Part shown: one piece after another, positions 2,802-22,684 of the stretch
Layout: each line of letters begins with the position of its first letter
Position numbering within the stretch: position 1 is the first letter of the stretch
Virus record (IMG/VR): IMGVR_UViG_3300002220_000406
Span: 869-64,868 of that record
From: a virus
Taxonomy: Duplodnaviria; Caudoviricetes
Length of the DNA stretch: 64,000 bases
Reading direction: 5' to 3' (one strand)
Notes under the pieces: generated by a model
What the model was told of the DNA's origin: nothing
The model's input: only the letters and a program-made list of their open reading frames with translations
Databases searched by the model: none
Translations under genes and position numbers: made by a program

Positions 2802-2807
2802 GGTCCA

Positions 2808-4178: not shown

Positions 4179-4206
4179 TTATACACTCCTGAGTTTTAAA
4201 ATTGAC

Positions 4207-5484
4207 TTAAACCTGACGCGCGTCGCTGTTTGTTTTGAGCGCTGTCAAAAAGCGTTCACGGGCTTTAGCTTGCCTGTCTTCCAGCGAACCGGAAGTGCTA
4301 GGCATTTGTACCCCGCCACTTTTTGGCTTAGCCGTGCCATTCTGGGCAGCTTTGGCGCTACGGGATCCCGTGGTGACCTTTTTCATGTCAGCCTGGATGC
4401 CTCGCACCAGTTCCAAGGCCATTGCTTGGGCCTTGTTGCCGAGAATGTGCATGTTAGCACTCGCCATTGGGACTCGTTTGTCTCCTTGCTTGTATCGGCC
4501 CATTTGAGCCACAAACCTTGCGATTTCGGTAAATTCATCCGAATAACGCAACTTAGACAAAATGTTTTCCTTTACCATTTTAGCAAGTTCGCCTTGGCCC
4601 CAGTCGACCTTAGATAGAACAGCTTCTATCTTTTTCGGTACTTCAACCTGGAAGTCTTCGTCAAACTCTTGCAAAACTGCGGTAGTAGGAACCCCGGCAT
4701 TTTGAGCGGTAAATTGCTGTGGGTTGTTAAGCATGTAATGCATTTCGGCAATCTGCCTCTGCTGCTCTTCCTGCTTCGTCAACATGTCGCGGTACAAGTC
4801 TGTTTCCTGAAAATTACTCTGGAACTCTTGCTCCGCAAACTCCACGTCCAATAAACCCGCTTTGTCTAGCTCGAGAAGTCTTTGAACTCTCGGGACATCC
4901 ACCTGAAATTGGTCAAGTACGTCGACCATGTAGGAGATGTTTTCTCTGGTTGCGTTATATGATCCAAATTCGTTCTGCAAATACTCATCTGCAGTCGCGG
5001 GGGTGGACAGAATGGACTGTGCAGCTCCGGCTACAAATTGCATTGCAACGTTTGGATTCGCTTCAAAGAGTGCTTGTGCGGCGTCTGCCAGCTCGTCGTC
5101 TGTGGCTGAAGATTTCTTCAATGCCTTGGCGAACGGCTTAAATGCCTCGATTCCGAAATCGCCCCCAATCTCCTCGAGCACTTCCGCTCGTGTCTTGGCT
5201 TCCTGAGTAAGTTCCATGAACTCCTCTTTCAGCTCCTTGGGTATGCGCAATTTGCGGATTTCATCTTCGGAGCGATAACGCTTCTCAAATTCCGAAAATT
5301 CGTCTACGGGCTCAGCAGGCTCGTCTAAGCCTTCCGGCTCTTCAGCGTCTGCGTCTTCTTCAACACTTTCCGTCGGTTCGACTTCATCAGCGGCCTCATC
5401 GGCGGCGGAATCCTCTACCTCGGGCTCAGGAGTGTCAACGGCGGTCTCATCGACGGCGGTTTCATCCGTAATTTCTTCATTCAT
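4207..5484 (-). CDS. capsid scaffolding protein
   Basis: 425 aa, very acidic disordered N-terminus, helical body, basic C-terminal helix, immediately upstream of the capsid gene. Confidence 0.65.
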   Translation of the reverse strand: MNEEITDETAVDETAVDTPEPEVEDSAADEAADEVEPTESVEEDADAEEPEGLDEPAEPVDEFSEFEKRYRSEDEIRKLRIPKELKEEFMELTQEAKTRAEVLEEIGGDFGIEAFKPFAKALKKSSATDDELADAAQALFEANPNVAMQFVAGAAQSILSTPATADEYLQNEFGSYNATRENISYMVDVLDQFQVDVPRVQRLLELDKAGLLDVEFAEQEFQSNFQETDLYRDMLTKQEEQQRQIAEMHYMLNNPQQFTAQNAGVPTTAVLQEFDEDFQVEVPKKIEAVLSKVDWGQGELAKMVKENILSKLRYSDEFTEIARFVAQMGRYKQGDKRVPMASANMHILGNKAQAMALELVRGIQADMKKVTTGSRSAKAAQNGTAKPKSGGVQMPSTSGSLEDRQAKARERFLTALKTNSDARQV

Positions 5485-5562
5485 AGATCAAATGCCTTAT
5501 GGCTTGTTTTTTCCTTGCGATCAGTTGTCAAGTATAAGTACGCCGACTTTCATCAGCGTATG

Positions 5563-5591
5563 TTGAGAATATCATAAAAATTTGTTATAGT
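5563..5591 (+). promoter_or_regulatory. sigma70-type promoter for a leaderless SLT transcript
   Basis: TTGAGA (5563-5568), 17 bp, TATAGT (5586-5591) with extended TG; ATG 6 nt downstream and no RBS. Confidence 0.7.
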
Positions 5592-5597
5592 AAAGCG

Positions 5598-6293
5598 ATG
5601 CCCAATAAGAAAAAGACATCGCGAGCACCAGCCAAGCCCCCGGGAGCGCCGGCGAAAAGTGTGTACGACCGCTATATTGACGAGGCTGCTGCGGAGCATG
5701 GCATAGATAGGTGGCTTTTGAGATCCATTATTTGGAATGAATCTAGTGACGATCCCAACGCAAGAAGCCAAGTTGGGGCCAGAGGCTTGGCACAGATAAT
5801 GCCGGCGACCTTCAATTACATTAGAACGGGGTTAGGATATAAAGACGTAAAAAATATTGATGATCCAAGGGACAATGTCCGGGCCGGGGCAAAATACCTG
5901 CGATATTTAATGGACAAGTTTAAAAATCCGACCATGGCCGTTGCTGCTTATAACGCAGGCCCAGGTAATGTGAACAGGCATATCAGGAAGGGAACAGCTA
6001 TCAATGGCGTGCCAGATATCAAGGAAACTCGAGATTATGTGGGCAAGGTAATGGGAGATTACAATCGCTTTGCAACTGAGATGCAAAAAACAACTCAGCA
6101 GCAGCAAGACCTTGCTCAACCGAACGCCATGAAAATACCAAGTTTAATGGAAATGTTTGGACCGAAAACCCAAGGACCCTTGCTCAATACAATTCCAGCG
6201 GCAACGCCGCCTCCACAGCAGCAAAGCCCAGTGTCAGACCTATCCCAAATCCCCGGCGTCGGTTTCGCGAAGAAACTTCTCGGCTGGGATTAA
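5598..6293 (+). CDS. lytic transglycosylase (SLT/GH23 family) with Q/P-rich tail
   Basis: Motifs IIWNESS, GARGLAQIMPAT, NVRAGAKYL, AVAAYNAGPGNV and ETRDYV are canonical for SLT domains. Confidence 0.92.
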   Translation: MPNKKKTSRAPAKPPGAPAKSVYDRYIDEAAAEHGIDRWLLRSIIWNESSDDPNARSQVGARGLAQIMPATFNYIRTGLGYKDVKNIDDPRDNVRAGAKYLRYLMDKFKNPTMAVAAYNAGPGNVNRHIRKGTAINGVPDIKETRDYVGKVMGDYNRFATEMQKTTQQQQDLAQPNAMKIPSLMEMFGPKTQGPLLNTIPAATPPPQQQSPVSDLSQIPGVGFAKKLLGWD

Positions 6294-6314
6294 ATCAAAA
6301 AGCAAACGACACAG

Positions 6315-6578
6315 TTATCGCTCATAATGATCCCTCTCCTTGAACAGATCCGGCAATCCCTCCTGATATCTCGCTGGGAGTGTGTCAGGCTTGTTCTTTG
6401 CCGCTCTAACCTGATCCGTAATTTGATTGGGAAGGTTATTTCTGTAAAACAGTCTATCCAGAAGTTGCTGTTGTACGGCCTCGTGCTGCTTTACCATAAA
6501 CTTCAAAGTCCTTACCTCGAAATGTCTGATAAAAACGCCGATTGCGATTCCGGCAAGGGCAATTAGTGTGTATTCCAT
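6315..6578 (-). CDS. small membrane-anchored protein (87 aa)
   Basis: ATG at 6578 coupled to the terminase stop (TAATG); N-terminal hydrophobic segment MEYTLIALAGIAIGVFI. Confidence 0.65.
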   Translation of the reverse strand: MEYTLIALAGIAIGVFIRHFEVRTLKFMVKQHEAVQQQLLDRLFYRNNLPNQITDQVRAAKNKPDTLPARYQEGLPDLFKERDHYER

Positions 6579-8380
6579 TATCTGAACTCCAAACTGTCGT
6601 CGTTTTTCTTGTCTTCTTCCATTCTTTTTTGCAGATATAGGATCTGGGCCATTTTCGTGGTGACGTGATCCGATGCCGCAAGGTGCGATGGCATATCCCT
6701 GATGAATTTTTCCGTCTGCGTAAGTGGTGCCGCGCGTGGCCCAAACAGCGCAAAAACGCCTTTTAATGAGTCGCACATGTCATCATTGATTTTGGAAGGC
6801 TTTTGAGCGGTCATCCCGTGCTCGGTTAGTTTGACGGGAACATATTCCCATGCCGACACCTGCTCTCGCAGCAATCTGTGGCCATTGTCGTCTTGCGCAC
6901 CGGTTACCTGATCGTCGTCGACAATGTAATAAAGCATTGGATCGCCTAACTTGTACAGATCGTCAACTGTTTCGTCTTCTTTAAACGGATTTGGACGTGT
7001 CCTGTCGGGCCTGGACAGGTGTCGCCACTGCGGAACGCCATCTTCAGATCGGTAATACTGGAATTTAGTAAAGGGCATGCTGTATTTCTGTCTCAGGGTA
7101 AGCATTTCACCCGTTCTTTCGTGCGACATCTGCCAAGATTCGATCTTTTCCCCGTACATTTCCTTTTTTATCGTTTCGGCTTGATCGTCTATAGACGTTC
7201 CCTTGAACGATCTAGAACGGTACACAAACAGTTTGTTAGGCAATATCGAGTTTTCTCCAGATGCTGCAACAAATACCCATGCTGAATAGTGCGGGTGTTG
7301 CCCTTCGGAATAACCAATGTCCAGCCCCACCTTGACCCTCCAATGGCTTGGGATTGCCCGGACACCGTACACCGATTCAAACTCGCTCCAGGTGATGACC
7401 TGCGTTTGCTCGTTGTATTCAGGAATGACTTTACCTGAGCGGTAACGATCCAGCTCGTTCTGGTATTCAGCCAAAAACGTGTTGAGCCCGGAAGCGTTAA
7501 GAAACTTCTGAGCCTTCTTGATGTCAAACCCAGACCAAGACGGAACCGAATCCGGTTGAATGGTATGCCGCATCCTACCCTCAACCATTTCCGTGCTAAC
7601 GTTTAGGTGCGTAAATGCTTTGGTTACCCCGATTACCGTTCTGTCTGACAATGCGTCAGAGGTTCCGGAATAAATCTGGTTGAGCACCGAGTGTTCCGAG
7701 ATCAAGTTTTGAGGAAAGTCGATGGTTGCGTTATCGGTGACCACGGGAAGTATGGATGCCTTGATTACGTTGATCTTGTTCTGTGCAACGGCAACGGAAT
7801 CCTTGATGTCGTCGATATCGTCCAGGATAATCTGGTTGGGACGCAGCGTGCCCACCCTGAGTCCTCGCATCGAGCTGTTGAGTCCCTTTGCGCGAAATAT
7901 GGCACCAGATCGCGTGATGAACACGTCTTTGTTCCAGGTGTCCGTGCCTCCGAATTTCTGCTCTTTAGGCTCGGACAATCCCGGGTAGAACTTGGCAATC
8001 TGTGAATCGGGATGCTCAATCAGGTATTTGATGTTAGAGACGTGTTCCCTGGCCTGATCGTCTACGGAGCAGACATACAAAAGGTAGGATTCACCAAGAA
8101 CGGCAGCCCTCATCAATCCCCCAACCTCGGCCATTGTCGATTTTCCCATGCCTCGGCCAAGAATGATCAAGGTTACAAGGTCTTTGGGCTCGACAGGCTC
8201 ATTGTTCTTCAGCCGGGTAAGTACACTCCATTTATGCTCCCAATATCTGGCGTGGTCATCGGAAAAATTGTCCGAAAATACAAAGGGAAATAAGGTCAAA
8301 AGCCACTCTTTCCATCCCTTCGACTCCAAAAGAGCGGATTCCGACTTCCAAAATTCGTTGCCTAAATCGGTTAATTTCAT
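6578..8380 (-). CDS. terL: terminase large subunit
   Basis: Walker A GRGMGKST, Walker B-like IILDDID after RGLR, RNase H-like nuclease motifs VGLDIGY and DDMCDSLKG. Start placed at ATG 8380 (TAATG coupling). Confidence 0.92.
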   Translation of the reverse strand: MKLTDLGNEFWKSESALLESKGWKEWLLTLFPFVFSDNFSDDHARYWEHKWSVLTRLKNNEPVEPKDLVTLIILGRGMGKSTMAEVGGLMRAAVLGESYLLYVCSVDDQAREHVSNIKYLIEHPDSQIAKFYPGLSEPKEQKFGGTDTWNKDVFITRSGAIFRAKGLNSSMRGLRVGTLRPNQIILDDIDDIKDSVAVAQNKINVIKASILPVVTDNATIDFPQNLISEHSVLNQIYSGTSDALSDRTVIGVTKAFTHLNVSTEMVEGRMRHTIQPDSVPSWSGFDIKKAQKFLNASGLNTFLAEYQNELDRYRSGKVIPEYNEQTQVITWSEFESVYGVRAIPSHWRVKVGLDIGYSEGQHPHYSAWVFVAASGENSILPNKLFVYRSRSFKGTSIDDQAETIKKEMYGEKIESWQMSHERTGEMLTLRQKYSMPFTKFQYYRSEDGVPQWRHLSRPDRTRPNPFKEDETVDDLYKLGDPMLYYIVDDDQVTGAQDDNGHRLLREQVSAWEYVPVKLTEHGMTAQKPSKINDDMCDSLKGVFALFGPRAAPLTQTEKFIRDMPSHLAASDHVTTKMAQILYLQKRMEEDKKNDDSLEFR

Positions 8381-8565
8381 TACCAGTGTTTGGGCGTCCA
8401 ACCCGATCCTCGAAATTGAGGCGGTGAGGTTGCTGCAACGGCTTTTTCGGCCTTCTGCCCACATTCAGGGCATTTTATCGTGTCCGTCCGCTCAGAAACC
8501 TTTAAAATCTTCTGTGTGCGTGTCTGACACTTGTCGTTCAGGCATTGATATTCATATATCGGCAT
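8380..8565 (-). CDS. FmdB-family zinc-ribbon protein (61 aa)
   Basis: MPIYEYQCxxxxC...CPECG...FRGSGW matches the FmdB (CxxC_CxxC_SSSS) signature. Confidence 0.8.
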   Translation of the reverse strand: MPIYEYQCLNDKCQTRTQKILKVSERTDTIKCPECGQKAEKAVAATSPPQFRGSGWTPKHW

Positions 8566-8566
8566 A

Positions 8567-8797
8567 TTAGTTAATGTAAGCCACTCCGTTCTCAAATTTA
8601 ACGTCTTCGGCAAAGCCTTGGATCACAAGATGGGGTTGGCCTTTCTTCCATTTGCTTTCCGTTGGCACGTTAACAACGATGTTGTCAGCGGTGTAACACG
8701 CTCCTTTCCAGTGGACGCTGAGACATCCCTTGGCACGGTAATAATGGTAATAAAACCTATATTTCTTTGTCCCAGTTTGGGGTTGGTTTGTCGACAT
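8567..8797 (-). CDS. hypothetical phage protein
   Basis: ORF MSTNQPQ...FYYHY..KGCLSVHWKGAC...QPHLVIQG; packed with its neighbours. Confidence 0.65.
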   Translation of the reverse strand: MSTNQPQTGTKKYRFYYHYYRAKGCLSVHWKGACYTADNIVVNVPTESKWKKGQPHLVIQGFAEDVKFENGVAYIN

Positions 8798-8939
8798 AGG
8801 CCAATCCTCGCAGCGTGTCCTTGTGTTGCTGCCACGCAAGTAACGCTTTGTAACATCCATTTTCTCTCAATTCAGCCTCGATCTTTTCAAATTCACGGTC
8901 AAAGTCGCTGACTGTGCGATATTTTAACTCAAGGTTCAC
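8757..8939 (-). CDS. hypothetical protein (60 aa)
   Basis: GTG start with GAGGTGG RBS; overlaps both neighbours. Confidence 0.5.
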   Translation of the reverse strand: MNLELKYRTVSDFDREFEKIEAELRENGCYKALLAWQQHKDTLRGLAYVDKPTPNWDKEI

Positions 8940-9465
8940 AAAACCACCTCGTGGTGTTGGGCTCCGGGACAAAGTCCGACTCCTGATCAAATGCACCGCA
9001 TATCCACTTGCTTCGATTGTTTACAGTTATATGGAGGTTATTGTCGTCACCCTTGATAAAGTGAAAAATCTTGTATTGCTCAGGAATACTTGCCCAGTTT
9101 TGAGTCCCAAAATTCAGGCTGAACAGGTAGGTGCCGGTGTGTATGTCATTACCCGCAGATCGGAACTCGACCGTCCAGTTTTGCACAAACGGCAAAACAA
9201 CTGTCTCGGCCTCGTTGCTGAGACTGTCCCATGGGCACACATCAATATTCTCAAAGGCGTCAGGGTCGAAACAGATGGCGTGTGGAGGCACATAGCAGAA
9301 CATTGCACCGGCTTCGGTCAAGACCATCAGCTTAGGAGCTTCGTTTAAACATGCCTGTATTGCCACGATAAAGCCCCTCTGAGCACCTTTTGGTCGTGAT
9401 GCCTGGGCAAGGTACCTGTTCCGAATAAAAACAGGTGTGAAAGGTGTGGCTATCAAATTGTTCAT
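8929..9465 (-). CDS. hypothetical protein (178 aa)
   Basis: Long ORF with normal protein composition in a minus-strand run. Confidence 0.7.
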   Translation of the reverse strand: MNNLIATPFTPVFIRNRYLAQASRPKGAQRGFIVAIQACLNEAPKLMVLTEAGAMFCYVPPHAICFDPDAFENIDVCPWDSLSNEAETVVLPFVQNWTVEFRSAGNDIHTGTYLFSLNFGTQNWASIPEQYKIFHFIKGDDNNLHITVNNRSKWICGAFDQESDFVPEPNTTRWFCEP

Positions 9466-9540
9466 ATTTGCGTTTAGAGGCGTTCTGAGCAGGTTTTAGA
9501 TCAAAAGGCTACCCTACCCCTATTTAACTCCAAAAACGGC

Positions 9541-9762
9541 TTAGAGAGCCTCTAATGAGCCAACAAGGTATGGTGAGGGTTTTGCCACGGGCATATAAGC
9601 CAAAACTTCCGACTTGTGGAAGCCTTGCGTCCAATAACCATTGCGGAACTGGGCATGAGACACCACAAGGCCCCTGTCCCCAACCCACGTGACCCAATAG
9701 TCGCCTTCAGTGTCCGGTGTCGCTCCCGGTGTCCAAAATGTCGTCCCAGTCTTCGTCTTCAT
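9541..9762 (-). CDS. hypothetical protein, DUF551-like (W...P...G.Y.V...AYMP..KP)
   Basis: Motif pattern typical of small phage DUF551-type proteins. Confidence 0.5.
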   Translation of the reverse strand: MKTKTGTTFWTPGATPDTEGDYWVTWVGDRGLVVSHAQFRNGYWTQGFHKSEVLAYMPVAKPSPYLVGSLEAL

Positions 9763-9904
9763 TGAAATCAATTTTTAAAATCACGCAATAAGGCAGCAAG
9801 ATCTCGCCCACCACAGACGCAAGGCGTTTGAGCGTCTCGTCGTCAGGTGCGTGATTCGCTATCACGTCAAAGGCCTCGATTATTTCCTGTGCCTCATCAT
9901 CCAT
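9707..9904 (-). CDS. acidic hypothetical protein (65 aa), probably leaderless
   Basis: MDDEAQEIIEAFD...; ATG at 9904 lies 6 nt after TGTTACAAT. Confidence 0.6.
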   Translation of the reverse strand: MDDEAQEIIEAFDVIANHAPDDETLKRLASVVGEILLPYCVILKIDFNEDEDWDDILDTGSDTGH

Positions 9905-9910
9905 ACGAAA

Positions 9911-9919
9911 ATTGTAACA
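9911..9919 (-). promoter_or_regulatory. extended -10 promoter (leaderless)
   Basis: Minus strand TGtTACAAT, 6 nt, ATG. Confidence 0.55.
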
Positions 9920-9958
9920 TATTAGGCGAAAAACCAACAATAAAAGCGATACCCTGAA

Positions 9959-10160
9959 AAAATGAGCCTCTTCCTTTCAAAAACAGGCATTGGTAGGGGT
10001 ACTACGGGGGCACCGCAAAATGAGCCTCTCCGTTTGAAAATCGGCATTGGGTGGGGGTACTGGGGTGTAGCGGAAAATGAGCCTCTCCTTTCAGAATTTG
10101 GGGTTGGTACTGGTACTACGGGGTACCAGAAAATGAGCCTCTTCTTTTCAAAAATGGGCA
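9959..10160. repeat. degenerate tandem repeat, 4 copies, period 56-58 bp
   Basis: AAAATGAGCCTCT at 9959, 10017, 10074 and 10130, each followed by related TTT(C/G)A(A/G)AA..GGCA(TTGG)...GGTACT..GGG sequence; non-coding gap. Confidence 0.9.
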
Positions 10161-10389
10161 TACCACCCACCCACCACCACCCACCCGAGCCTCCGATCTG
10201 GTCTCCGAGAGCCTCCGAGCCGTCTCGATCTGACCCGAGCCCAGAGCCTCGAGGCTCGTATCTCCGAGACGCACTGCCAGTCCTCGAGCCAGATCTGCGA
10301 GGGCTCGAGCTCGTATCTCCGAGGGCAACGCTGCAATCCCTCGAGCGTCCTATCTCCGAGACGGAAGGATAGCCGGCTAACCTATCGGC

Positions 10390-10422
10390 AAAGAGAAAGG
10401 GCTGAGGACGAATCCCCAGCCC
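10390..10422 (-). terminator. rho-independent terminator ending the leftward early operon
   Basis: Minus strand GGGCTGGGGA-TTCG-TCCTCAGCCC followed by TTTCTCTTT; UUCG tetraloop. Confidence 0.8.
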
Positions 10423-10446
10423 ACAGCCCTCGAGGTTGAGAGCGAT

Positions 10447-10650
10447 CTATGCGCGCTCCCAGTACTTGCGGATGCGGTCACCCCAGATAATTGTGGGGCA
10501 CATAGTGTCCAGCCGTGAGTAGCACGCCCGAACGATTGGGACGTGAATCTTACAGACCCAGTCCACCAACCGCTCCGATCTGAGAGCCGAGACGAGCCAG
10601 AGAAGGTGGAGCGTGCCGATGTACGCCCCGAGCAGTATGTGCTTTGTCAC
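10447..10650 (-). CDS. hypothetical protein with hydrophobic N-terminus (67 aa)
   Basis: GTG start with GGAGG RBS; last gene before the terminator. Confidence 0.6.
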   Translation of the reverse strand: MTKHILLGAYIGTLHLLWLVSALRSERLVDWVCKIHVPIVRACYSRLDTMCPTIIWGDRIRKYWERA

Positions 10651-11075
10651 TCTGCCACCTCCGAGAACTCCTCATACGGAAAGCTATCGTCACCCTCGAG
10701 CACGATCTCCGAGGGCTCACCGACCACGGAGAGGCACGAGGGAGCCTCGAGCCTCGCCCACTGATAGATCGCCCCCTCGATGGTCTCGCAGTCCGTCACG
10801 TCGACCTCAACAAAGAACCGACACGGCACAGTGAAAACGACCCTCATAACACCCGAGGGTGGAGCCTCGAGCCTCGAGAAGGGCTCAGCCAATCCGAGCA
10901 GACTCTCGAGGGCGTTCCGGACTTCGGGAGCGAGCACACGCCACGCATCCTCGTCTGGGTATCCGTCTCTGTCTGCGGTGTAGTTGGCGAATTTCTCGCC
11001 AAGCTCCGAGAGCCACCAATTAGCCGTCATTCTCGCCTTTTCGGCTCTGTCCGAATCTAACGCTGCATTTATCAT
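10647..11075 (-). CDS. acidic early protein (142 aa); C-terminal part weakly resembles the small beta-beta-alpha family
   Basis: GGAGG RBS; RVVFTVPCRFFVEVDVTDCETIEGAI pattern. Confidence 0.65.
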   Translation of the reverse strand: MINAALDSDRAEKARMTANWWLSELGEKFANYTADRDGYPDEDAWRVLAPEVRNALESLLGLAEPFSRLEAPPSGVMRVVFTVPCRFFVEVDVTDCETIEGAIYQWARLEAPSCLSVVGEPSEIVLEGDDSFPYEEFSEVAE

Positions 11076-11368
11076 TTTTCACCTCCGAATTTAACCACAC
11101 GCTGAAGAAACGCCACCGAGGGCACATAGTACCACTGGGGCTCGCCACACTCGCATTCGCAATCCCACCCAGCCATCCAATGACCGCAAGGTGGACGCTT
11201 GACCAGATCCCACCCGAGCCTCCGCTTCGAGCGGTTGCCCCGACCCAGTTCTGCGACCCGAGCCAGTGGTCTATCATCACTCAGCACCTCCGCAGACTTA
11301 GCCACGGCAACCTCTGCCGAGAGTCCGCACTTCATCAGCGCACAGGCAAACTTACGAAATCTGCTCAT
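11072..11368 (-). CDS. early hypothetical protein (98 aa, Cys-rich C-terminus)
   Basis: GGAGG RBS; CGH...CECECG motif. Confidence 0.6.
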   Translation of the reverse strand: MSRFRKFACALMKCGLSAEVAVAKSAEVLSDDRPLARVAELGRGNRSKRRLGWDLVKRPPCGHWMAGWDCECECGEPQWYYVPSVAFLQRVVKFGGEK

Positions 11369-11558
11369 CCTTCACCTCCCAAGCCTCTCCGACTTCATAC
11401 TCATTGAAAACCTTGACCGAGCACCTATCCACCAACTCGTACAAGTGCCCATCCTCGTCAGCCTGTTCCACCAGCTTCTGGGCATCCTCGGCTGAGTCCG
11501 CTTCGACCTCGAGCTTGTGTGACTCGTACAGATCGAGCTCAACTAGAAACTTTGGCAT
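11352..11558 (-). CDS. small acidic beta-beta-alpha protein (DpnD/PcfM-like family member)
   Basis: MPKFLVELDLYESHKLEVEADSAEDAQKLV matches the repeated family motif; GGAGG RBS. Confidence 0.7.
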   Translation of the reverse strand: MPKFLVELDLYESHKLEVEADSAEDAQKLVEQADEDGHLYELVDRCSVKVFNEYEVGEAWEVKDEQIS

Positions 11559-11688
11559 CTTTCACCTCCTTGCGAAGTCTCTGGACTTCACGCACACGCT
11601 CCACCTGTTTGCGCTTATAGCCGACAGGGTCGAGCTTAGCCTCCCGAGCCTCTCGCACGAGTTGCTCGAACAAATCCTTGCTATTCAT
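11539..11688 (-). CDS. first gene of the leftward early operon (49 aa, helical)
   Basis: AGGAGG RBS, ATG at 11688, downstream of a TTGACA promoter. Confidence 0.65.
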   Translation of the reverse strand: MNSKDLFEQLVREAREAKLDPVGYKRKQVERVREVQRLRKEVKDAKVSS

Positions 11689-11725
11689 AGTTCCTCCTAA
11701 ATGCCCGAAAGAGTCGGACAAGGTG

Positions 11726-11754
11726 ACAGTATCAACCAAGGGCTGTTATGTCAA
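11726..11754 (-). promoter_or_regulatory. leftward early sigma70 promoter
   Basis: TTGACA, 17 bp, TACTGT with extended TG; shares ATTGACATAACA with the rightward promoter at 12850. Confidence 0.75.
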
Positions 11755-12239
11755 TCTCCGAGAACGACCCGAGCAAGGCTCTCCGCTTCAACTCGGGGGA
11801 GGGGGTTCTCTCGAGGGAGATCTGCGTGGAAGTGTTGAAACAGATTCACAAGTAAGTTCCGGATACCATCACGCAAAGCAGCCTCGGAAGATATGGAGGT
11901 CGGCTGAGCCGTCTCGAGGCGGTGTGTGTTCTGTAGAACGCTCAAGAGGTTAGGCAGAACTCCGTCCTTGATGTCCCGAGCTTTTAGCTTTTCGTTAATG
12001 ATCTCCGAAACGAGGTATCGGTTTTCTTCGTTGATTGTGGCGAAGTCTCGCACCTTCCTGTCTGCTAGGAGCAGTATCTCGGGCGTGACTGTTTCGGGCG
12101 TAAGTCTGGTTACTGTGTCACGGCTTACCCCGTGCCTAGTGGCTATATGTTCTTGTGTGGATATTTGCAGATATTTCTCCGCCAGAATCTCCGCCTTGGC
12201 TTGGTCGCTGAGGTTATGGTCTCCCTTATTGCGTCCCAT
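11751..12239 (-). CDS. putative terminase small subunit (N-terminal HTH)
   Basis: HTH-like TQEHIATRHGVSRDTVTRL, helical middle, RLETAQPTSI motif; size and late-type context fit TerS. Confidence 0.55.
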   Translation of the reverse strand: MGRNKGDHNLSDQAKAEILAEKYLQISTQEHIATRHGVSRDTVTRLTPETVTPEILLLADRKVRDFATINEENRYLVSEIINEKLKARDIKDGVLPNLLSVLQNTHRLETAQPTSISSEAALRDGIRNLLVNLFQHFHADLPRENPLPRVEAESLARVVLGD

Positions 12240-12515
12240 TTAGAAGTTTATGACCCCGAACTTTTTCGGCTTTGTGTGAGTCTTTACGAGCTGGTCTATT
12301 AGTGCGAGGAGTCGAAGGTTTACCACTTCGTAATCGGTGGCTTTTTGGGTTGCCTTGCCCAGTTCGACCTTTAGCTCGACTATTACCTCGTCACGAGCTT
12401 TTAAAGCCCCCTCGAGGGCTTCAATGAGCGTGTCTCGGGCATCGGGCTGGCTTGTCTGGGCATTGACCAGTACAGGGGCGAATAGAAGCAATGCGGTTAA
12501 GGTCAAGGTTTTCAT
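12240..12515 (-). CDS. exported coiled-coil protein, spanin-like (outer component candidate)
   Basis: Signal peptide MKTLTLTALLLFAPVLVNA|Q, coiled coil, overlapped with an upstream TM/coiled-coil gene. No lipobox Cys seen. Confidence 0.45.
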   Translation of the reverse strand: MKTLTLTALLLFAPVLVNAQTSQPDARDTLIEALEGALKARDEVIVELKVELGKATQKATDYEVVNLRLLALIDQLVKTHTKPKKFGVINF

Positions 12516-12802
12516 TTTTTCAAGGCTCTCCGAGCTTCGATGACTTTCTGGTCAGCGGTCTTGAGTCTGGTGTCGATCGCTTCGAGCTTTGCCTCGAGGC
12601 GTGCTTCAGACTGGCTGACCTTGGCATCGACCAAAGCCTCGACTGCGGAGAGGTCGAGAGGCGGTGGTGGCGGTGCCGGCTTCGAGCATTTAGCCGAAAA
12701 GAAGACCACAACAAGGACAGCCAGACACAGAACGAGCAGAGCGTTCTGTCGGATGAGGTTAAGAGCGTCGATGCCTATTCGGGCGAGAAGTGCGGTGAAC
12801 AT
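12512..12802 (-). CDS. membrane-anchored coiled-coil protein, spanin-like (inner component candidate)
   Basis: TM segment ALLVLCLAVLVVVFFS, poly-Pro linker, coiled coil. Confidence 0.5.
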   Translation of the reverse strand: MFTALLARIGIDALNLIRQNALLVLCLAVLVVVFFSAKCSKPAPPPPPLDLSAVEALVDAKVSQSEARLEAKLEAIDTRLKTADQKVIEARRALKK

Positions 12803-12807
12803 AAGGC

Positions 12808-12816
12808 ATTATAGCA
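12808..12816 (-). promoter_or_regulatory. extended -10 promoter, leaderless transcript of the spanin-like/terS unit
   Basis: Minus strand TGcTATAAT, 5 nt, ATG (12802); no RBS. Confidence 0.65.
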
Positions 12817-12850
12817 TATTTGCGCTTTTCTTAGAAGTGCTGACTGGGTA

Positions 12851-12880
12851 TTGACATAACAACAAAGAGCCGTTTAAGAT
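12851..12880 (+). promoter_or_regulatory. rightward early sigma70 promoter
   Basis: TTGACA, 18 bp, TAAGAT; GGAGG RBS and ATG at 12900. Confidence 0.75.
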
Positions 12881-12899
12881 GCCTTCGGAGGTTAGACAA

Positions 12900-13268
12900 A
12901 TGACAAATACAAAATTCGATATCACGGCTCAGCGTGGCTGGGTCGATCACCTACCCAGCTCAGCCAAGGGGCATAGCTTCGACCAAGCCCTTCTGGCGAT
13001 AGACTCGGAGGGCACTTCGGTTGGGCGTTTTTGGTGGCGTTGGACTCGAGGGGGCACTTGCCAGTGCATCGTTCAAATAAACGGCATTGGTCGAGGCTAT
13101 GGGAAGGCTGGGGGCTATGGCTACGACAAGAAAGCACAGGCTCTCGACAATGCCCTCGCAAGCGTGGGGATCAAGTGGAAGTCTGCCCACGACATCACGC
13201 CAGATTACGACCTTCAAACGATGTTCGAGGAACTGGACAACAAAGAGGTACAGGTCTACTGGGTCTAG
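12900..13268 (+). CDS. conserved phage early protein (GxGxAGGYGYDK motif)
   Basis: GRGYGKAGGYGYDKKAQALDNAL motif; first gene after the promoter. Confidence 0.75.
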   Translation: MTNTKFDITAQRGWVDHLPSSAKGHSFDQALLAIDSEGTSVGRFWWRWTRGGTCQCIVQINGIGRGYGKAGGYGYDKKAQALDNALASVGIKWKSAHDITPDYDLQTMFEELDNKEVQVYWV

Positions 13269-13297
13269 GGGCATCAGCCCCTACCCTTGGAGGAACA

Positions 13298-13783
13298 ATG
13301 AGAATAGAGAAAAATAAAATGATAACTTTTGAGTCGCTATACCGCCAGTTTGCTGGCGAGTCGGTCTATCTGGGCGAGGTGATGCACGAGCTAGTCTTTG
13401 AGAAGGGCTCGGAGGCGTATCACCCCAGCATCACTTGGACATTCACGCCACCCAACGAAGAAGAGGAGGAGGTGGTCATTGCCCTTGCCATCGAGGGAGA
13501 ACGAGTGACGGATTATTTCGGGGTCTCATCGCTTCCGGCACTGGCGTTAACCTTTTTGAGGGCTCTGGGCTATGACTGCTCAGAGATCGAGGAGAGGGAG
13601 GGGGATATCCCCTCCCCAATCACCTGTGCCGATTGTGGCTCGGGCGATGTCGTGCCACTGGCTGATGCGGTGTGGAACGGCAAGGAAGGACGCTGGAGCG
13701 TTGCGTGGGTCAACACTGAGGGATATTGCAAAGTCTGCGACAAAGACGGAGTGCAGCTAAGGAGGGCTTATGAGGCTATATGA
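13298..13783 (+). CDS. acidic early protein with C-terminal zinc ribbon (family B)
   Basis: GGAGG RBS; CADCGSGDV..LADAVWN....WSV...GYCKVCD. Confidence 0.75.
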   Translation: MRIEKNKMITFESLYRQFAGESVYLGEVMHELVFEKGSEAYHPSITWTFTPPNEEEEEVVIALAIEGERVTDYFGVSSLPALALTFLRALGYDCSEIEEREGDIPSPITCADCGSGDVVPLADAVWNGKEGRWSVAWVNTEGYCKVCDKDGVQLRRAYEAI

Positions 13784-14231
13784 TTTTGTGAAAGAAGACA
13801 GGACTGGGCTTGAGGGGATGCTCAAGACCTTTGCCCGAGCGGAGTGGGACGCTCGGGTGCGGAATGGTGAGACGCTGGACACTCTGGCGTTTTTAACTGA
13901 CCTTGCGGAGGCATTGGACGAGGAATTTTGTTCCGAGCTTGAGGCGGTGATGGTGGGGCTATCTGCCTACACCCACCTCTTCAACCGCTTCATCGAGCAC
14001 TACCTCGACCACGAGCTTTTTTTTGTGCTTGCGGTCGATCTCTGGAAGGCTTGCGGACATAAAGTGCCGGCAATCTGTGCCAAGTGTCACACAGGTGACC
14101 AGCTCGAGCTTTCGGGCGATGTTCGGGTGGTGAACGGCAAGGTCGAGATTATCAAGCTCGACATCCAGTTCTGCAACAACTGTGCGGAGCATACAACAGT
14201 TTTGGGGGTGGATTGTGAGCAGAGAAGATAG
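13770..14231 (+). CDS. acidic early protein with C-terminal zinc ribbon (family B)
   Basis: CAKCHTGDQL......FCNNC. Confidence 0.75.
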   Translation: MRLYDFVKEDRTGLEGMLKTFARAEWDARVRNGETLDTLAFLTDLAEALDEEFCSELEAVMVGLSAYTHLFNRFIEHYLDHELFFVLAVDLWKACGHKVPAICAKCHTGDQLELSGDVRVVNGKVEIIKLDIQFCNNCAEHTTVLGVDCEQRR

Positions 14232-14376
14232 GGAACGACTCGAGGATGCGGTGGAGTTGATTCTCGACAGGGACGGCACAGTGTTGCCGTCTCTGGTCGA
14301 GGATGCAATCCAATGGATTAGGCAAAACGGACTGGTCGAGGAAGCCAGAGCCGAAATTACAAGGAGACAGAAATGA
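14215..14376 (+). CDS. small helical early protein (53 aa)
   Basis: GTG at 14215, overlapped with neighbours. Confidence 0.55.
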   Translation: MSREDRERLEDAVELILDRDGTVLPSLVEDAIQWIRQNGLVEEARAEITRRQK

Positions 14377-14615
14377 AGACTAAAGTGATCTGCACCGATT
14401 GCAAGGGCGAGGATGTGCTTTTAGACACATTGGCGGTATGGAATGTGGAAAAGCAAGACTGGGTCGTGTTCGATGTGGCAGAGCCTAGAGCCTTTTGTAG
14501 GGACTGCGACACGGATGTTGAATGGGATATGGTGGACATCGAGAGCGGTGTCCCCCATCTCGAGAAAGTCATCAGTGATTTTGAGGAGGGAAACAATGGA
14601 CAAGAAACAAATTGA
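14373..14615 (+). CDS. standalone zinc ribbon (family B)
   Basis: CTDCKGEDVLLDTLAVWNVEKQDWVV...AFCRDCD. Confidence 0.75.
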   Translation: MKTKVICTDCKGEDVLLDTLAVWNVEKQDWVVFDVAEPRAFCRDCDTDVEWDMVDIESGVPHLEKVISDFEEGNNGQETN

Positions 14616-14775
14616 ACAGGTCAAGCGAGCGGTCTCCAGTGCGATCTATGCACTCTGGGACGCTTCGATGGTTCCGGAGGGTCATCCGGTAGGCAACAAG
14701 ATAGAATCGGCTCATTCGAGGCTGATAGAGGCAAGGCTGATGCTTAAAAAGCTGGAGGAGGCAAACAATGAATAA
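14596..14775 (+). CDS. small helical early protein (59 aa)
   Basis: GAGGAGG RBS, ATG at 14596. Confidence 0.65.
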   Translation: MDKKQIEQVKRAVSSAIYALWDASMVPEGHPVGNKIESAHSRLIEARLMLKKLEEANNE

Positions 14776-15262
14776 ATACACAGTACTGGCACGGACGATT
14801 ATGACTTACAAGGTCGAGGTTGAGGCAGAGACCGGTGACGATGCTCGAGACAAAATGATTGACCTTTGGGAGCAGTGGGGTACGGAAAAGTTTGCGGCTA
14901 TAGACGAGGAGGATTTTGAGGTGAGAGAAGCCATCGACCAAGGCGAGGTGGTGCTCGAAAAGCAATTGGTCTGCGAGGATTGCAAAAGCTCGGACTTGAC
15001 CCTCGAAGCTGAGGTTCAGTATCAAAACGGCACACTGATTGTCGGCAATCTGATTAGAGCCTTTTGTAACATTTGCGATGACATCTGCAACACGGAGGAA
15101 ATCGTGCCGCTTAAAACTTGGAATGTCTCGTGGTCAGAGCCCCATATCCGATGGGGGGTCAGAGGGGAAACTGCTGAAGAAGCCATACTGATCGCTCAGC
15201 GAGAGGGTCAGAGCGACACTGTCGAAGGACGGCACAACTATTGTGCGTGGGAGGCGGTATGA
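14768..15262 (+). CDS. modular early protein: family A domain + family B zinc ribbon + family A-like domain
   Basis: MNKYTV...YKVEVEAETGDDA; CEDCKSSDL...AFCNICD; KTWNV...VRGETAEEAILIA. Confidence 0.75.
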   Translation: MNKYTVLARTIMTYKVEVEAETGDDARDKMIDLWEQWGTEKFAAIDEEDFEVREAIDQGEVVLEKQLVCEDCKSSDLTLEAEVQYQNGTLIVGNLIRAFCNICDDICNTEEIVPLKTWNVSWSEPHIRWGVRGETAEEAILIAQREGQSDTVEGRHNYCAWEAV

Positions 15263-15597
15263 ACACTGCCACGGACACAGTGATGTTATGGCTGAGAGCG
15301 ACTGGGGAGGAATCCCCAGTTCGCTCCATCGTCAGAGCGTTCTACGATGAGATGAACCAGAACGGATGCGATTACTTCAACGATGGCACGCTGGAGGAGT
15401 TCACGGACAAATACCGCTCAGCGGTTCGAGAAAGGGTCTGGGACGCTTTTCTGGCTCTGGGTCACGACTACGCTGAGCCGGTGACCTATTTGTCCGTCTT
15501 GACAACAAGGGCTGTTTTGTTGCAGTGTGACTGGGCAGTCATCATCCGGCAAGTGGTCGGTGATGAGGGTCTAGTCTTTTTGGAGGTGGGAGAATGA
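15259..15597 (+). CDS. early hypothetical protein (112 aa)
   Basis: GGAGG RBS, ATG at 15259. Confidence 0.7.
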   Translation: MNTATDTVMLWLRATGEESPVRSIVRAFYDEMNQNGCDYFNDGTLEEFTDKYRSAVRERVWDAFLALGHDYAEPVTYLSVLTTRAVLLQCDWAVIIRQVVGDEGLVFLEVGE

Positions 15598-15695
15598 GAT
15601 TTATTTACGGATTAATTGTGACCGCCAGCTTTTTGAGCGGTTTGGCATTGGGGTTTATCGAAGGGCTCAGACACGCTGAGACCCTCTGGAGGTAG
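15594..15695 (+). CDS. 33-aa single-pass membrane peptide (not in the ORF track)
   Basis: ATGA coupling; MRFIYGLIVTASFLSGLALGFIEGLRHAETLWR fills the gap exactly. Confidence 0.6.
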   Translation: MRFIYGLIVTASFLSGLALGFIEGLRHAETLWR

Positions 15696-15697
15696 AA

Positions 15698-16006
15698 ATG
15701 GCAGAGTACAAAATACTGACAAATGAATTTGACCCACAAAGTTTTTTTGTGGAGTACCAGAAACGCTTCGCAGACTATGAGGGCGTGGCACAGATCTCTC
15801 TGGTGGACAGGTCGAAAGGACTGCACACCACGGAAGAACGGCTGCACTTGGTGCGAGTGACCAAGGTACACGATATGTTGGTTCGTGCTTCGTGCATAGA
15901 CCAAGCTGAGGCGATAGCAATAGGTGACCAGACTGGTGCGTGGTCGACTGTCATCTCGACAAATGTGACGGCTAAATTTTTAGGGGAGGATAAGGACAAT
16001 GCCTAA
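15698..16006 (+). CDS. early protein with C-terminal family A-like domain
   Basis: HLVRVTKVHDMLVRASCIDQAEAIA; GGAGG RBS. Confidence 0.7.
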   Translation: MAEYKILTNEFDPQSFFVEYQKRFADYEGVAQISLVDRSKGLHTTEERLHLVRVTKVHDMLVRASCIDQAEAIAIGDQTGAWSTVISTNVTAKFLGEDKDNA

Positions 16007-16484
16007 TTGGTGTAGCAATGAATTTTCGATTGTTGGGTCAGAGACGGACGCAAGGGAGTTTATGCGGAAGCATTTGACCCCAACCACTGACGAAGATACC
16101 GGTCTGCCCAGAACGGACGATAGACACGAAATGGACTTTAATCAGTTCATTCCAGAGCCTAGCGATCTAGGTGAAGGTGGGTGGTATAACTGGCGTATCG
16201 AGAACTGGGGTACGAAATGGCAACCGGCTTTTTTAGTTGCCAATAGACTGAAGGGCATCATCACTATTCAGTGCGAGACTGCTTGGTCTCCACCAAGACC
16301 CATCGCAGAAGCCATCTCCAAAATGTATCCCTTGATGGTGGTCAGACTCCAATACTTTGAGGAGGGAATGGACTACTGGGGCGTTTGCGTGTTCCAAGGT
16401 GGCGAGATGGTTGCCGCAGTATCAGCTGAGGGTGAATGGGAGAAGGACGAGGACTGGATGGAGGTGAGTGATGCCGAGAACTAG
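15999..16484 (+). CDS. YubB/DUF1281-like ferredoxin-fold protein
   Basis: MPNWCSN...DFN..IPEP...WYNWRIENWGTKW...ETAWSPP...YFEEG signature. Confidence 0.8.
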   Translation: MPNWCSNEFSIVGSETDAREFMRKHLTPTTDEDTGLPRTDDRHEMDFNQFIPEPSDLGEGGWYNWRIENWGTKWQPAFLVANRLKGIITIQCETAWSPPRPIAEAISKMYPLMVVRLQYFEEGMDYWGVCVFQGGEMVAAVSAEGEWEKDEDWMEVSDAEN

Positions 16485-16641
16485 GAACTGGGTGGTGCGT
16501 GTATACGACAAAGAGGGTGAGGTCTGCCATTCGTGGCAGATACCTCACAGGGCTGAGGATGAGGCTAGGAGAGAGGCTGAGGCTGATATCCGGCACATAG
16601 ACTGCGATGACTGGGTAATGATCGCAATGGAGGCACAATGA
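16471..16641 (+). CDS. small acidic early protein (56 aa; not in the ORF track)
   Basis: GGAGG RBS; MPRTRNWVVRVYDKEGEV...AEDEARREAE. Confidence 0.65.
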   Translation: MPRTRNWVVRVYDKEGEVCHSWQIPHRAEDEARREAEADIRHIDCDDWVMIAMEAQ

Positions 16642-16958
16642 TGAAGACATACGAAATAGAGGTGACAAGGAAGGGCAAACTTACGCTGAGGGCTGAGTCA
16701 GAAGAAGCACTTAATGAGATTTTGTTTGAGTCGGATGACGATATCTTCGATAACTGCATTACTCGGACAGATTGGGAGCTTCTGAATATTTCCGATGCTC
16801 CGGAGACCAAACGATACAGGGTGTTGGCACGAGAGGTCTGGGCGTATTCGGTGGATGCGGTCAGTGAAGAGGAGGCCGCCTTTCTGGTCGATAACGAGGG
16901 CTATAAGCACAAGACCGAAATGCGTGGTTTTGAGATTGAGGATATCGAGGAGGTTTAG
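16638..16958 (+). CDS. tandem two-domain family A protein
   Basis: KTYEIEVTRKGKLTLRAESEEAL... and KRYRVLAREVWAYSVDAVSEEEAA... Confidence 0.75.
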   Translation: MMKTYEIEVTRKGKLTLRAESEEALNEILFESDDDIFDNCITRTDWELLNISDAPETKRYRVLAREVWAYSVDAVSEEEAAFLVDNEGYKHKTEMRGFEIEDIEEV

Positions 16959-16959
16959 G

Positions 16960-17142
16960 ATGAATAAGTACAAGGTGTCTTTGGTCAAGCGTTTTAAGGT
17001 GGTCGTGGAGGCAAAGGATAGGGCTGAGCTGGAAGAGATGCTATTTGAGTCAAGCGATGAGATCGCTACGGATGAATGTCTGGATTATACGGACTGGGAT
17101 GTAATAGCCGAGTGGGCAATCGCTGACGAGGAGGAGGTTTGA
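16960..17142 (+). CDS. family A small acidic protein (60 aa)
   Basis: MNKYKVSLVKRFKVVVEAKDRAEL; shares LFESxD..D.C...TDW with the preceding gene. Confidence 0.75.
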   Translation: MNKYKVSLVKRFKVVVEAKDRAELEEMLFESSDEIATDECLDYTDWDVIAEWAIADEEEV

Positions 17143-17143
17143 A

Positions 17144-17332
17144 ATGCTATCAACGGAATGGACAAGGGCTAGGATGCAACAAGAGGGCATTGAGCTGGTG
17201 GATGCGTGGTGCTTGCACCAGCCGGACGATGAGGTTTGCGAGTGGGTGGTGGTAGGCAGTCCGGATTGCAAATGCGGATGTAACAACGACCACATTCACT
17301 GTCAACACGGATATATCATAGAGGTTGGATAG
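17144..17332 (+). CDS. small Cys/His-rich early protein
   Basis: WCLHQP...CKCGCNNDHIHCQHG; GAGG RBS. Confidence 0.6.
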   Translation: MLSTEWTRARMQQEGIELVDAWCLHQPDDEVCEWVVVGSPDCKCGCNNDHIHCQHGYIIEVG

Positions 17333-17340
17333 GAGGAAAA

Positions 17341-17523
17341 ATGAAAACATACACAATTGAGTACAGTTTGATCTATACAATGACCCAAGAGGTTGAGGCT
17401 GAGAACGAAGAGGCTGCGATTGACGCAGTGGAGGATAATGCCGGTGCTGGCATCGAGCACGATGTGAGAGTTACTGGTTTCACAGTCATAGATGAGTATG
17501 GAGAGGAGGAAGAAGATGAATAA
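17341..17523 (+). CDS. family A small acidic protein
   Basis: MKTYTIEYSLIYTMTQEVEAENEEAAIDAV; AGGAGG RBS. Confidence 0.75.
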   Translation: MKTYTIEYSLIYTMTQEVEAENEEAAIDAVEDNAGAGIEHDVRVTGFTVIDEYGEEEEDE

Positions 17524-17743
17524 GTATGAGATGAAATTTGAGGATCTGGATGAGAAGCATTTTGTGGTTTATTTCGATTGCCACGCAGACAGTGAGGAAA
17601 CGATTCAAGAGTCGGGTTATGTGTCGATCAGACAGGACGATGCGGATAAATGCTTCTATGTAGTGTCTTTCGACCACGAAGGCAATGTCCTGTCGCAGAC
17701 GGCAGTTCCGATGGCAGTGAGGGAGGGCAGAGATGAAGAATAA
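17516..17743 (+). CDS. small acidic beta-rich early protein (75 aa)
   Basis: GAGGAGG RBS, ATG at 17516. Confidence 0.65.
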   Translation: MNKYEMKFEDLDEKHFVVYFDCHADSEETIQESGYVSIRQDDADKCFYVVSFDHEGNVLSQTAVPMAVREGRDEE

Positions 17744-17966
17744 CTGGCTATTTGAGCAAACGGCAATGGGCAACTTGGGGACACCTTTTTGGGTGTCCTC
17801 ACAAAAGCCCAAGGTAAAGGTGTACAGGGTCAGATGGCACGAGTGTGCCGAGGCGATCGTGGTGGCTACAGACCCAGAGTCGGCTATCGACAAAGCGGTG
17901 GATGCCCCGAATGTCCGGTTTGATGGACGCTGCAACTATGAGGTCGAGGAGGTGGTAGGTGAATAA
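17733..17966 (+). CDS. family A small protein
   Basis: KVYRVRWHECAEAIVVATDPESAIDKA. Confidence 0.7.
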   Translation: MKNNWLFEQTAMGNLGTPFWVSSQKPKVKVYRVRWHECAEAIVVATDPESAIDKAVDAPNVRFDGRCNYEVEEVVGE

Positions 17967-18150
17967 GTACAAAGTATGGACAGAAGAAGTGATTATCAAG
18001 TATTGGGAAGTCGAGGCTGAGAGTCCGGAGTGGGCAGAAGCCCACATCAAGTCACTGCACGAGTACGACCCCACAGGGGATATGGGCGAGACAGTGGACA
18101 GAGTCAACTTTCAGATACAGACTGTAGAGGAGGTGAACAATGAGCAGTGA
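17959..18150 (+). CDS. family A small acidic protein
   Basis: MNKYKVWTEEVIIKYWEVEAESPEWAEAH. Confidence 0.75.
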   Translation: MNKYKVWTEEVIIKYWEVEAESPEWAEAHIKSLHEYDPTGDMGETVDRVNFQIQTVEEVNNEQ

Positions 18151-18316
18151 GCAGTTAGAGGCGATTCGATGTGCCTATGCAGATCTATTAGGTGCATACC
18201 AAGCCTACGAGCAGTCAGATATGCTTGCACACGATTGGAAGGCACACAGGCTGACGCTAGATGAGATGTTGGAATTATTTTCGTTTCTAAAGGAGGAAAC
18301 AGATGTACAAAATTGA
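18140..18316 (+). CDS. conserved small phage early protein (58 aa; not in the ORF track)
   Basis: MSSEQLEAIRCAYADLLGAYQA...HDWKAH..TL; GGAGG RBS. Confidence 0.7.
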   Translation: MSSEQLEAIRCAYADLLGAYQAYEQSDMLAHDWKAHRLTLDEMLELFSFLKEETDVQN

Positions 18317-19368: not shown

Positions 19369-19382
19369 AGCTCGGTTCTTTT
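19351..19382. terminator. bidirectional terminator / perfect 26-bp palindrome
   Basis: AGAACCGAGCTTT|AAAGCTCGGTTCT (19354-19379), flanked by an A-tract and a T-tract, at a convergent gene junction. Confidence 0.8.
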
Positions 19383-22673: not shown

Positions 22674-22684
22674 TTGTCCTCCTT

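Follow-up and report, generated by a model that had tools for sequence, protein, structure and literature searches.

Why should a phage whose early genes have been purged of many short palindromes carry one restriction-type word in excess within those same genes? The question is raised by positions 10184 to 12600 of a 64,000-nucleotide stretch of viral DNA, referred to here as the window (bases 869-64868 of the 64,868-bp IMG/VR virus record IMGVR_UViG_3300002220_000406), which belongs to a novel tailed phage. CTCGAG and the related words CTCCGAG and CCCGAG are crowded at this locus into a short non-coding array and into the eight small early genes next to it. The excess is a real DNA-level effect, since it holds against synonymous-codon shuffles, against shuffles further constrained for the purged palindromes, and in all three reading frames. 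The best explanation, advanced tentatively and at somewhat less than an even chance, is that these words form a lineage-specific tag of the restriction-modification type, selected for its density on the DNA that enters the cell first, and most likely serving as a methylation or "self" mark.

A local excess of CTCGAG-type words

An earlier note, made from the letters alone, had counted 10 copies of CTCGAG in 10240-10910 and 15 in 10240-12600, and the recount matched it exactly (10 copies in 10248-10905 and 15 in 10248-12593, from a window total of 36). It had also put CTCCGAG at about ten further copies and called CCCGAG frequent; 10 of the 13 plus-strand CTCCGAG copies in the window were found in 10203-12528, and 9 of the 16 CCCGAG copies in 10184-11975, so that all three words are concentrated within 10184-12600. 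The reverse word CTCGGAG occurs three times on the plus strand of the window and never inside the cluster. A binomial comparison of the cluster with the rest of the window gave p=1e-12 for CTCGAG, p=1.5e-12 for CTCCGAG and p=2e-12 for CCTCGAG, and a first-order Markov model fitted to the local composition predicted 2.1 CTCGAG in 10184-12810, where 15 were seen. The genes here have the minus strand as their sense strand, and on it the words share a core of CTCG and then R-R-G; CTCG occurs on this strand 52 times in 2.45 kb (21/kb vs 3.8/kb elsewhere). Counted per 2 kb from 10 kb inward, CYCGRG falls from 23 to 8, 4 and 0; the excess is limited to approximately 10.2-16 kb and is not genome-wide, the late regions being neutral. 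Once codon usage was kept in shuffles, the rest of the genome showed no significant excess or deficit of CTCGAG, and the lack of sites in the late 30 kb (0 sites) was likewise not significant (0 vs 2.5; 3 vs 5). The elements of the locus are as follows.

9959-10161, four 57-bp iterons with the core GAGGCTCATTTT on the minus strand, next to the array, with the late/packaging operon downstream
10184-10360, minus strand, non-coding array of 11 oriented motif copies, 177 nt
10244-10257, perfect 14-nt palindrome GAGCCTCGAGGCTC inside the array
10399-10422, minus strand, intrinsic terminator of the leftward early operon, a 10-bp stem followed by a T-run, with the array downstream
10429-10434, a lone CTCGAG past the last stop codon and before the terminator (the relative L215 also has one, at a shifted position)
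10447-12802, minus strand, eight small early genes of the leftward operon
10447-10650, 10647-11075, 11072-11368 and 11352-11558, minus strand, four of the early genes
11539-11688, 11751-12239 (helix-turn-helix, or HTH, protein), 12240-12515 and 12512-12802, minus strand, the other four early genes
10741-10756 and 10861-10878, two tandem GAGCCTC heptads in the 142-aa gene, array-like words within coding DNA
12851-16000, plus strand, start of the rightward early operon, with weaker and decaying enrichment and a promoter-like site at 12851-12880

The array lies between the terminator of the short leftward early operon and the four iterons, from which it is separated by a CCAC-rich spacer. Read on the plus strand, its words are two CCCGAG, five CTCCGAG and four CTCGAG at irregular spacings of 10-23 nt; on the minus strand the unit is roughly CTCGGAGATAYGAG and then (N)CTCGAGG. 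All six frames of the array are closed or without a protein match. Beyond the iterons begins the long leftward late operon that runs into the large terminase gene (TerL), and the array and the packaging genes are kept apart by the four iterons and a promoter. The 57-bp iterons are a neighbouring but separate system. A search of 9300-13000 against Rfam revealed no known RNA family, and the folding of the array is unremarkable except for the terminator (z = -2.06). No DnaA boxes (TTWTNCACA) were found in 9900-10450, and exact-pattern scans of IMG/VR with the repeat unit (CTCGAG, 4-6 nt, ATCTCCGAG) and with the iteron core returned single chance-level matches only.

The excess had been said to hold in coding as well as non-coding DNA, and in addition to the 11 copies within 177 nt of the array, the genes themselves exceeded synonymous shuffles. 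The eight minus-strand genes were shuffled with their proteins and the operon's own codon usage kept, and words were counted on the sense strand. CTCGAG was observed 10 times (3.4 +/- 1.55 expected), CTCGGAG 5 times (1.05 expected) and CTCGGG 7 times (1.5 expected). All three reading frames were enriched, with 11, 6 and 5 words observed vs 3.8, 1.0 and 1.2, which rules out a codon-pair or peptide effect. Shuffles that were barred from creating the purged palindromes still gave only 3.75 +/- 1.6 CTCGAG, ruling out a by-product of the purging of other palindromes. Over 12850-19400, 6 CTCGAG were seen and 2.9 expected.

A more ordinary explanation would be that a horizontally acquired operon of higher GC content inflates the counts through its codon usage (CTC, GAG, TCG and CGG), its Leu-Glu-rich proteins and local duplications. 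GC content is indeed 0.57 in 10-12 kb vs approximately 0.50 elsewhere, the leftward operon uses CTC for 37% of its Leu and GAG for 73% of its Glu, 8 of the 10 coding CTCGAG read Leu-Glu, and a maximal-order Markov model of the whole window predicts 38 CTCGAG where 36 are present. However, shuffles that keep the operon's codon usage and proteins reach only a third of the observed counts, every frame is enriched, and the densest part of the cluster is non-coding. Codon and amino-acid shuffling, which the earlier note had itself proposed as the result that could overturn a DNA-level signal, does not remove the excess.

Relatives with the same word and with another

The feature is retained in L215 and L216, two relatives with 75-87% nucleotide identity to this phage. 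L215 has 14 CTCGAG in 6.9 kb, a shorter array that differs by insertions and deletions of whole units, the same terminator and the same iterons; a hairpin comparable to the terminator is also found near the end of L214, a relative discussed below. Four of the eight alignable coding CTCGAG are kept in L215, which has six others of its own, and this is approximately neutral at about 85% identity. Swaps between this phage and L215 occur at different codons (CTCGAG/CCCGGG, CTCGGG/CTCGAG, CTCGAA/CTCGAG). As sites are gained and lost, and some swaps keep a related word, it is density that is maintained and not particular sites. Comparison with L215 also showed patches of approximately 97-100% identity at 11080-11370 and 12460-12560 within flanks of approximately 80%, indicating recent recombination between the early regions of related phages.

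Other relatives carry a different word. L205 and L214 are one phage from one sample, with 71-79% nucleotide identity to this phage, and have no CTCGAG in 19.6 kb. CCWGG is instead present at 11.2/kb in the early region of this type vs 2.3/kb in its structural region, and the L214 early genes hold 60 copies where shuffles gave 20.9-22.6 +/- 3.7, with CCTGG (33) and CCAGG (27) both used on the sense strand. L211 and L213 (TerL 74% identical) are alike in this; L211 has 50 CCWGG in its early genes vs 24.4 expected, and 36 vs 35.9 in its late genes; an intergenic array beside the iterons of L211 holds 16 CCWGG in 664 nt, which by strand are 13 CCTGG and 3 CCAGG. The CCWGG relatives therefore repeat the two-layer pattern of an array and enriched early genes, with all frames enriched and Poisson-like spacing; no regular site spacing was found, the coefficient of variation being approximately 1.

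A codon alignment of three orthologous proteins set the two words against each other at the same residues. A conserved Ala-Arg-Leu-Glu-Ala is spelled with CTC-GAG in this phage and in L215, and with CTG-GAG, giving CCTGG, in L214. L214 places CCWGG at other conserved residues as well, where this phage and L215 avoid CCWGG/CCAGG, sometimes by different synonymous changes. The same residues with opposite spelling are direct evidence of DNA-level selection acting in opposite directions on the same genes. That the same genes in L214 have CCWGG and no CTCGAG is also inconsistent with an artefact of composition, which the shuffles, the frame test and the codon alignment largely refute, leaving it very improbable.

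Words of this kind could also arise by mutation, if a Vsr-like short-patch repair tied to a host cytosine methyltransferase created them, mostly in a recombining, mosaic early region. The words are classical methyltransferase sites, they turn over rather than being conserved, and the early region is strongly mosaic, with patches of 100% identity beside patches of approximately 80%. An excess of CCWGG produced by Vsr repair, together with Dcm, is established in E. coli. However, the local excess here is 3-5 fold, far above the E. coli effect, and the late region of the same genomes has none. Many of the word-creating changes are transversions or fall off the T that Vsr repairs (CTC to CTG), GCWGG is absent, CTWGG is not depleted, and the non-coding arrays are oriented. 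The transversions, the positions outside Vsr repair and the undepleted CTWGG make a purely mutational origin unlikely.

Several observations concern the wider group. Where the 57-bp iterons would be, L211 (8480-8560) and L223 (1-70), both of the CCWGG type, have a different and shorter iteron, AAAAATGGGACYCCTA, in agreement with their more divergent HTH protein (38% identity). DNA methyltransferases (PF00145 or PF01555) are encoded upstream of TerL in the more distant relatives L206 (4541-6427), L207 (5277-7556) and L218 (1-1889); these have no enriched palindrome and avoid CATG, GATC and GGCC throughout the sampled genome. Searches for further early regions based on the HTH protein yielded one distant locus only, without enrichment.

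The purged zone and the presumed leading end

The avoidance of other palindromes that had been noticed by eye in this region was borne out by counting. CATG, GGCC, GCGC, CGCG, ACGT, CCWGG, GGWCC, GGSCC and CCSGG are purged from a zone within 9402-27805, and in 10184-19400 the numbers seen and expected were 1 and 40 for CATG, 1 and 31 for CGCG, 2 and 33 for GGCC, and 0 and 20 for CCWGG. Spans free of sites extend over 9402-26053 for CCWGG, 9654-19046 for CATG, 9872-16874 for GGCC, 10452-19908 for CGCG and 10798-27805 for ACGT. On its left side the zone ends as follows.

9402-9872, sharp left edge of the purged zone (CCWGG 9402, CATG 9654, GGSCC 9669, CCSGG 9725, GGCC 9872)

The left edges agree within 0.5 kb at the iterons. 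On the right the limits are uneven, lying anywhere between 16.9 and 27.8 kb, and the zone looks like an exposure gradient during DNA entry. Late regions are only mildly depleted, and L214 and L211 show the same purge in their early regions. Three further palindromes are reduced to zero over the whole genome, namely ATCGAT (0 vs approximately 14.8 expected), TTCGAA (0 vs approximately 9-14) and ACGCGT (0 vs approximately 5-17); ATCGAT and TTCGAA are also missing in L205, and L206 has 11 and 10 of them.

A purge of this shape is what one would expect from DNA entry at a fixed end near 10.0-10.2 kb, with defences neutralised step by step. Such entry is documented in T7-like phages and in the first-step-transfer DNA of T5 (10.1101/866236; PMC12455610; PMC10644984), and it has been reported that the first-injected regions decide restriction sensitivity (PMC12455610; for T5 first-step-transfer DNA, 10.1101/866236). 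As in T5, T7-like phages and Murciavirus (PMC12455610; 10.1101/866236; PMC10644984), the early block here is purged with a sharp outer edge and the late genes are not. The contigs of four relatives stop at the iteron/array junction: L214 just past the terminator, and the other three (L205, L208 and L223) on its iteron side. Taken together with the sharp purged edge, these contig ends suggest that the array probably marks the leading genome end, and we infer that it lies at or beside this end, at approximately 10.0-10.2 kb. The first promoter-like site that faces inward lies at 12851, so that the strongest enrichment spans the distance from the presumed end to that promoter.

T5 likewise has an untranslated repeat region at the boundary, and the array lies at the edge of the purged zone, a position that would fit an injection-stop region of the T5 type; the T5 region, however, has paired DnaA boxes and the array has none. 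Nor was word enrichment comparable to the 3-5 fold excess of one word here found in the purged leading regions of T7 and T5. Dunn and Studier in 1983 reportedly described arrays of short imperfect repeats next to the T7 terminal repeat. Like those, the present array would lie directly inside a genome end, flanked by the early region and by the packaging genes; the T7 repeats differ in that they are not palindromes of the restriction type and have no echo in the genes next to them.

This position raises the possibility, which we consider rather unlikely, that a phage protein whose specificity changes between lineages uses the array as its landing pad at the genome terminus, in packaging, end-processing or injection stop, and that the excess in the genes is spill-over by duplication and weak selection. 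The array is non-coding and oriented, lies beside the iterons directly upstream of the packaging/late operon, and is where the four contigs end; array-like stretches recur in the adjoining 142-aa gene, the giant injected protein carries a ParB-like domain, and the complex untranslated repeat region of T5 lies at the edge of first-entering DNA (10.1101/866236). Duplication of an array could not, however, give the excess of L214 and L211, which is spread evenly, with Poisson-like spacing, across genes of both strands for 6-9 kb. Words of 5-6 bp with W degeneracy typify restriction-modification enzymes rather than the sites of HTH or ParB proteins. The one conserved DNA-binding protein in the vicinity does not change along with the word, and the lack of DnaA boxes also speaks against a landing pad.

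The sequence of the cluster is not an assembly artefact, because contig L209, from an independent sample, is 99.94% identical over 2791-11798. When the end and the start (L224) of the record are joined they match L208 as a single collinear alignment of 3,040 nt, so that the genome is essentially complete at approximately 64.9 kb and assembles as a circle; given this join, the CheckV completeness of 71% is an underestimate for a novel clade. The other landmarks referred to here are the following.

5598-6293, SLT lysin
6578-8464, minus strand, large terminase TerL, 628 aa
22685-23500, replication module with the gene for a lambda-O-like HTH_36 initiator
29505-47795, giant open reading frame (ORF) of 6096 aa, with a ddrB-ParB domain at approximately residues 3134-3259

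Pfam gave two matches only on the giant ORF, the ddrB-like ParB domain and a weak GNAT domain, and the unannotated remainder is a candidate carrier of DNA-acting domains. TerL has 308 metagenomic relatives. It is called as two ORFs (456 and 183 aa) in L209 at 3332-5217, owing to a frameshift or a sequencing variant. Homologues of 750-1014 aa with intein/Hint and LAGLIDADG Pfam domains (P0081, P0085, P0086, P0089, P0094, P0098, P0099 and P0106) are intein-bearing terminases of the clade.

Candidate readers and the meaning of the proposed tag

What, then, might read the word? The 162-aa HTH protein (11751-12239) is 79% identical in L214, and with an almost unchanged recognition helix in a CCWGG-type phage that has no CTCGAG, it was ruled out as the reader. 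The 57-bp iteron system was ruled out as well, its core being common to this phage, L205 and L208. As both are common to the two motif lineages, neither reads the word. A lineage-specific 98-aa ORFan (11072-11368) was also rejected, as neither relatives nor an informative fold match were found for it. As for the words (CTCGAG, CYCGRG, and CCWGG with its W variants equally used on the sense strand), they are of the kind recognised by Type II methyltransferases and endonucleases, whereas typical operators of HTH or ParB proteins are longer.

Nor is the cluster an origin of the iteron type, since the repeats of the initiator gene were found elsewhere. The HTH_36 gene contains, at 23067-23172, four direct repeats, GAGTAACATTYTGTGACTC, and this is a lambda-O-style replication origin at approximately 23.1 kb. 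Two of these four repeats are followed by TCGAG, in keeping with the link to the origin iterons that had been drawn earlier.

The P1 pac site and the GATC clusters of oriC type are cases in which a methylatable word is clustered in non-coding DNA, P1 pac lying near the packaging genes. The earlier note had compared the cluster to P1 pac, with a TerS-like protein or an initiator as its reader. There is a likeness, in that a short methylatable word is tightly clustered (11 copies in 177 nt) within a few hundred base pairs of non-coding DNA near packaging genes. However, the excess here runs over kilobases of coding DNA, and the word does not vary in step with the HTH protein or the iterons close by. 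The array does not lie within or beside a small-terminase gene whose product reads it; no TerS was identified by Pfam or PHROGs. With the HTH protein and iterons shared by the CCWGG lineage and the origin elsewhere, the analogy as proposed was not supported. The cluster is not a TerS-read pac site of the P1 kind, not a replication origin and not an artefact of codon usage.

Decoy or Chi-like sites were also considered, which would titrate a host endonuclease or turn an end-processing nuclease of RecBCD/AddAB type from degrading DNA to repairing it. The orientation of the array words matches that predicted for an enzyme coming in from the iteron side, they lie at the presumed leading end, and HIP1, a cyanobacterial word discussed below, has been likened to Chi (10.1101/2024.09.10.611283). 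However, orientation is confined to the arrays, and both orientations and both W variants are equally enriched in the genes, which argues for recognition of a double-stranded palindrome. Chi words are conserved over whole bacterial families, and the word here differs between phages that are approximately 75% identical. The nuclease decoys suggested in the earlier note would place many cleavable sites inside early genes, where cutting would be lethal, and we regard decoy and Chi-like functions as quite improbable.

For a benefit, the nearest precedent is HIP1 (GCGATCGC) of cyanobacteria, likewise a short methylatable palindrome in excess of codon usage both inside and between genes (PMC5861425, PMC4390886), as is found here in all frames and in the array. 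HIP1 is maintained by selection (PMC5861425), and a link between the HIP palindrome and a methyltransferase has been discussed (PMC4390886). When methylated on incoming DNA it raises transformation 9-60 fold, and it is not part of a restriction system (10.1101/2024.09.10.611283). HIP1 differs, however, in being genome-wide in its host, with sites conserved between genomes; here the excess is restricted to the early region, sites turn over, and the word, of 5-7 bp, changes between close relatives.

Among the options a putative methylation-read signal is the most attractive. The word is densest in the array at the edge of the palindrome-purged early block, and its density decays inward through the early genes. 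Its reader would be an enzyme that recognises short palindromes, of the Type II methyltransferase or endonuclease kind, differing between lineages and supplied by the host or perhaps by the injected 6096-aa virion protein. Sites methylated in the previous host would allow the first-entering DNA to arrive densely marked, and such a mark may help it to survive, or to be processed, before the early anti-defence genes act. Alternatively, an enzyme that binds short palindromes and is delivered together with the DNA could use the words as its landing pad.

Several points weigh against a density-selected methylation tag. The 7-mer CTCGGAG does not fit a simple palindromic Type II site, and neither does the orientation of the array words, all on one strand here and 13 CCTGG to 3 CCAGG in L211. 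In absolute terms the coding excess of this phage is small, and an array-like insertion (10855-11062) missing from L215 accounts for 3 of the 10 coding CTCGAG, so that local duplication contributes, without explaining the whole effect. The phage encodes no methyltransferase (PF00145, PF01555 or PF02086) and no Vsr. Its TerL has no usable relative in IMG/VR (one weak match, 25% identity) and none in GTDB genomes or cultured phages. Finally, the leading end is itself inferred, and the phage's own record assembles as a circle.

A more specific form of the methylation tag can be proposed, which is possible but doubtful. The clade may load its first-entering kilobases with the sites of the local host's methyltransferase, as an epigenetic passport by which the DNA is already self-marked before anti-defence genes are expressed, and may swap the word, CTCGAG for CCWGG, when the host changes. 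If true, such a counter-defence would work in the opposite sense to restriction-site avoidance, and would be a phage counterpart of methylated HIP1 on incoming cyanobacterial DNA. Our literature search found no report of such word enrichment in phages. The usual pattern is the loss of restriction sites, sharpest in first-entering DNA, and here one restriction-type word is positively selected inside a purged block. This points to an interaction of the entering phage DNA with a sequence-specific enzyme of the host or virion, in marking, protection or processing. It also offers a computational handle, in that a palindrome enriched beside purged ones may locate the leading ends of uncultured phages and their host-specific epigenetic context.

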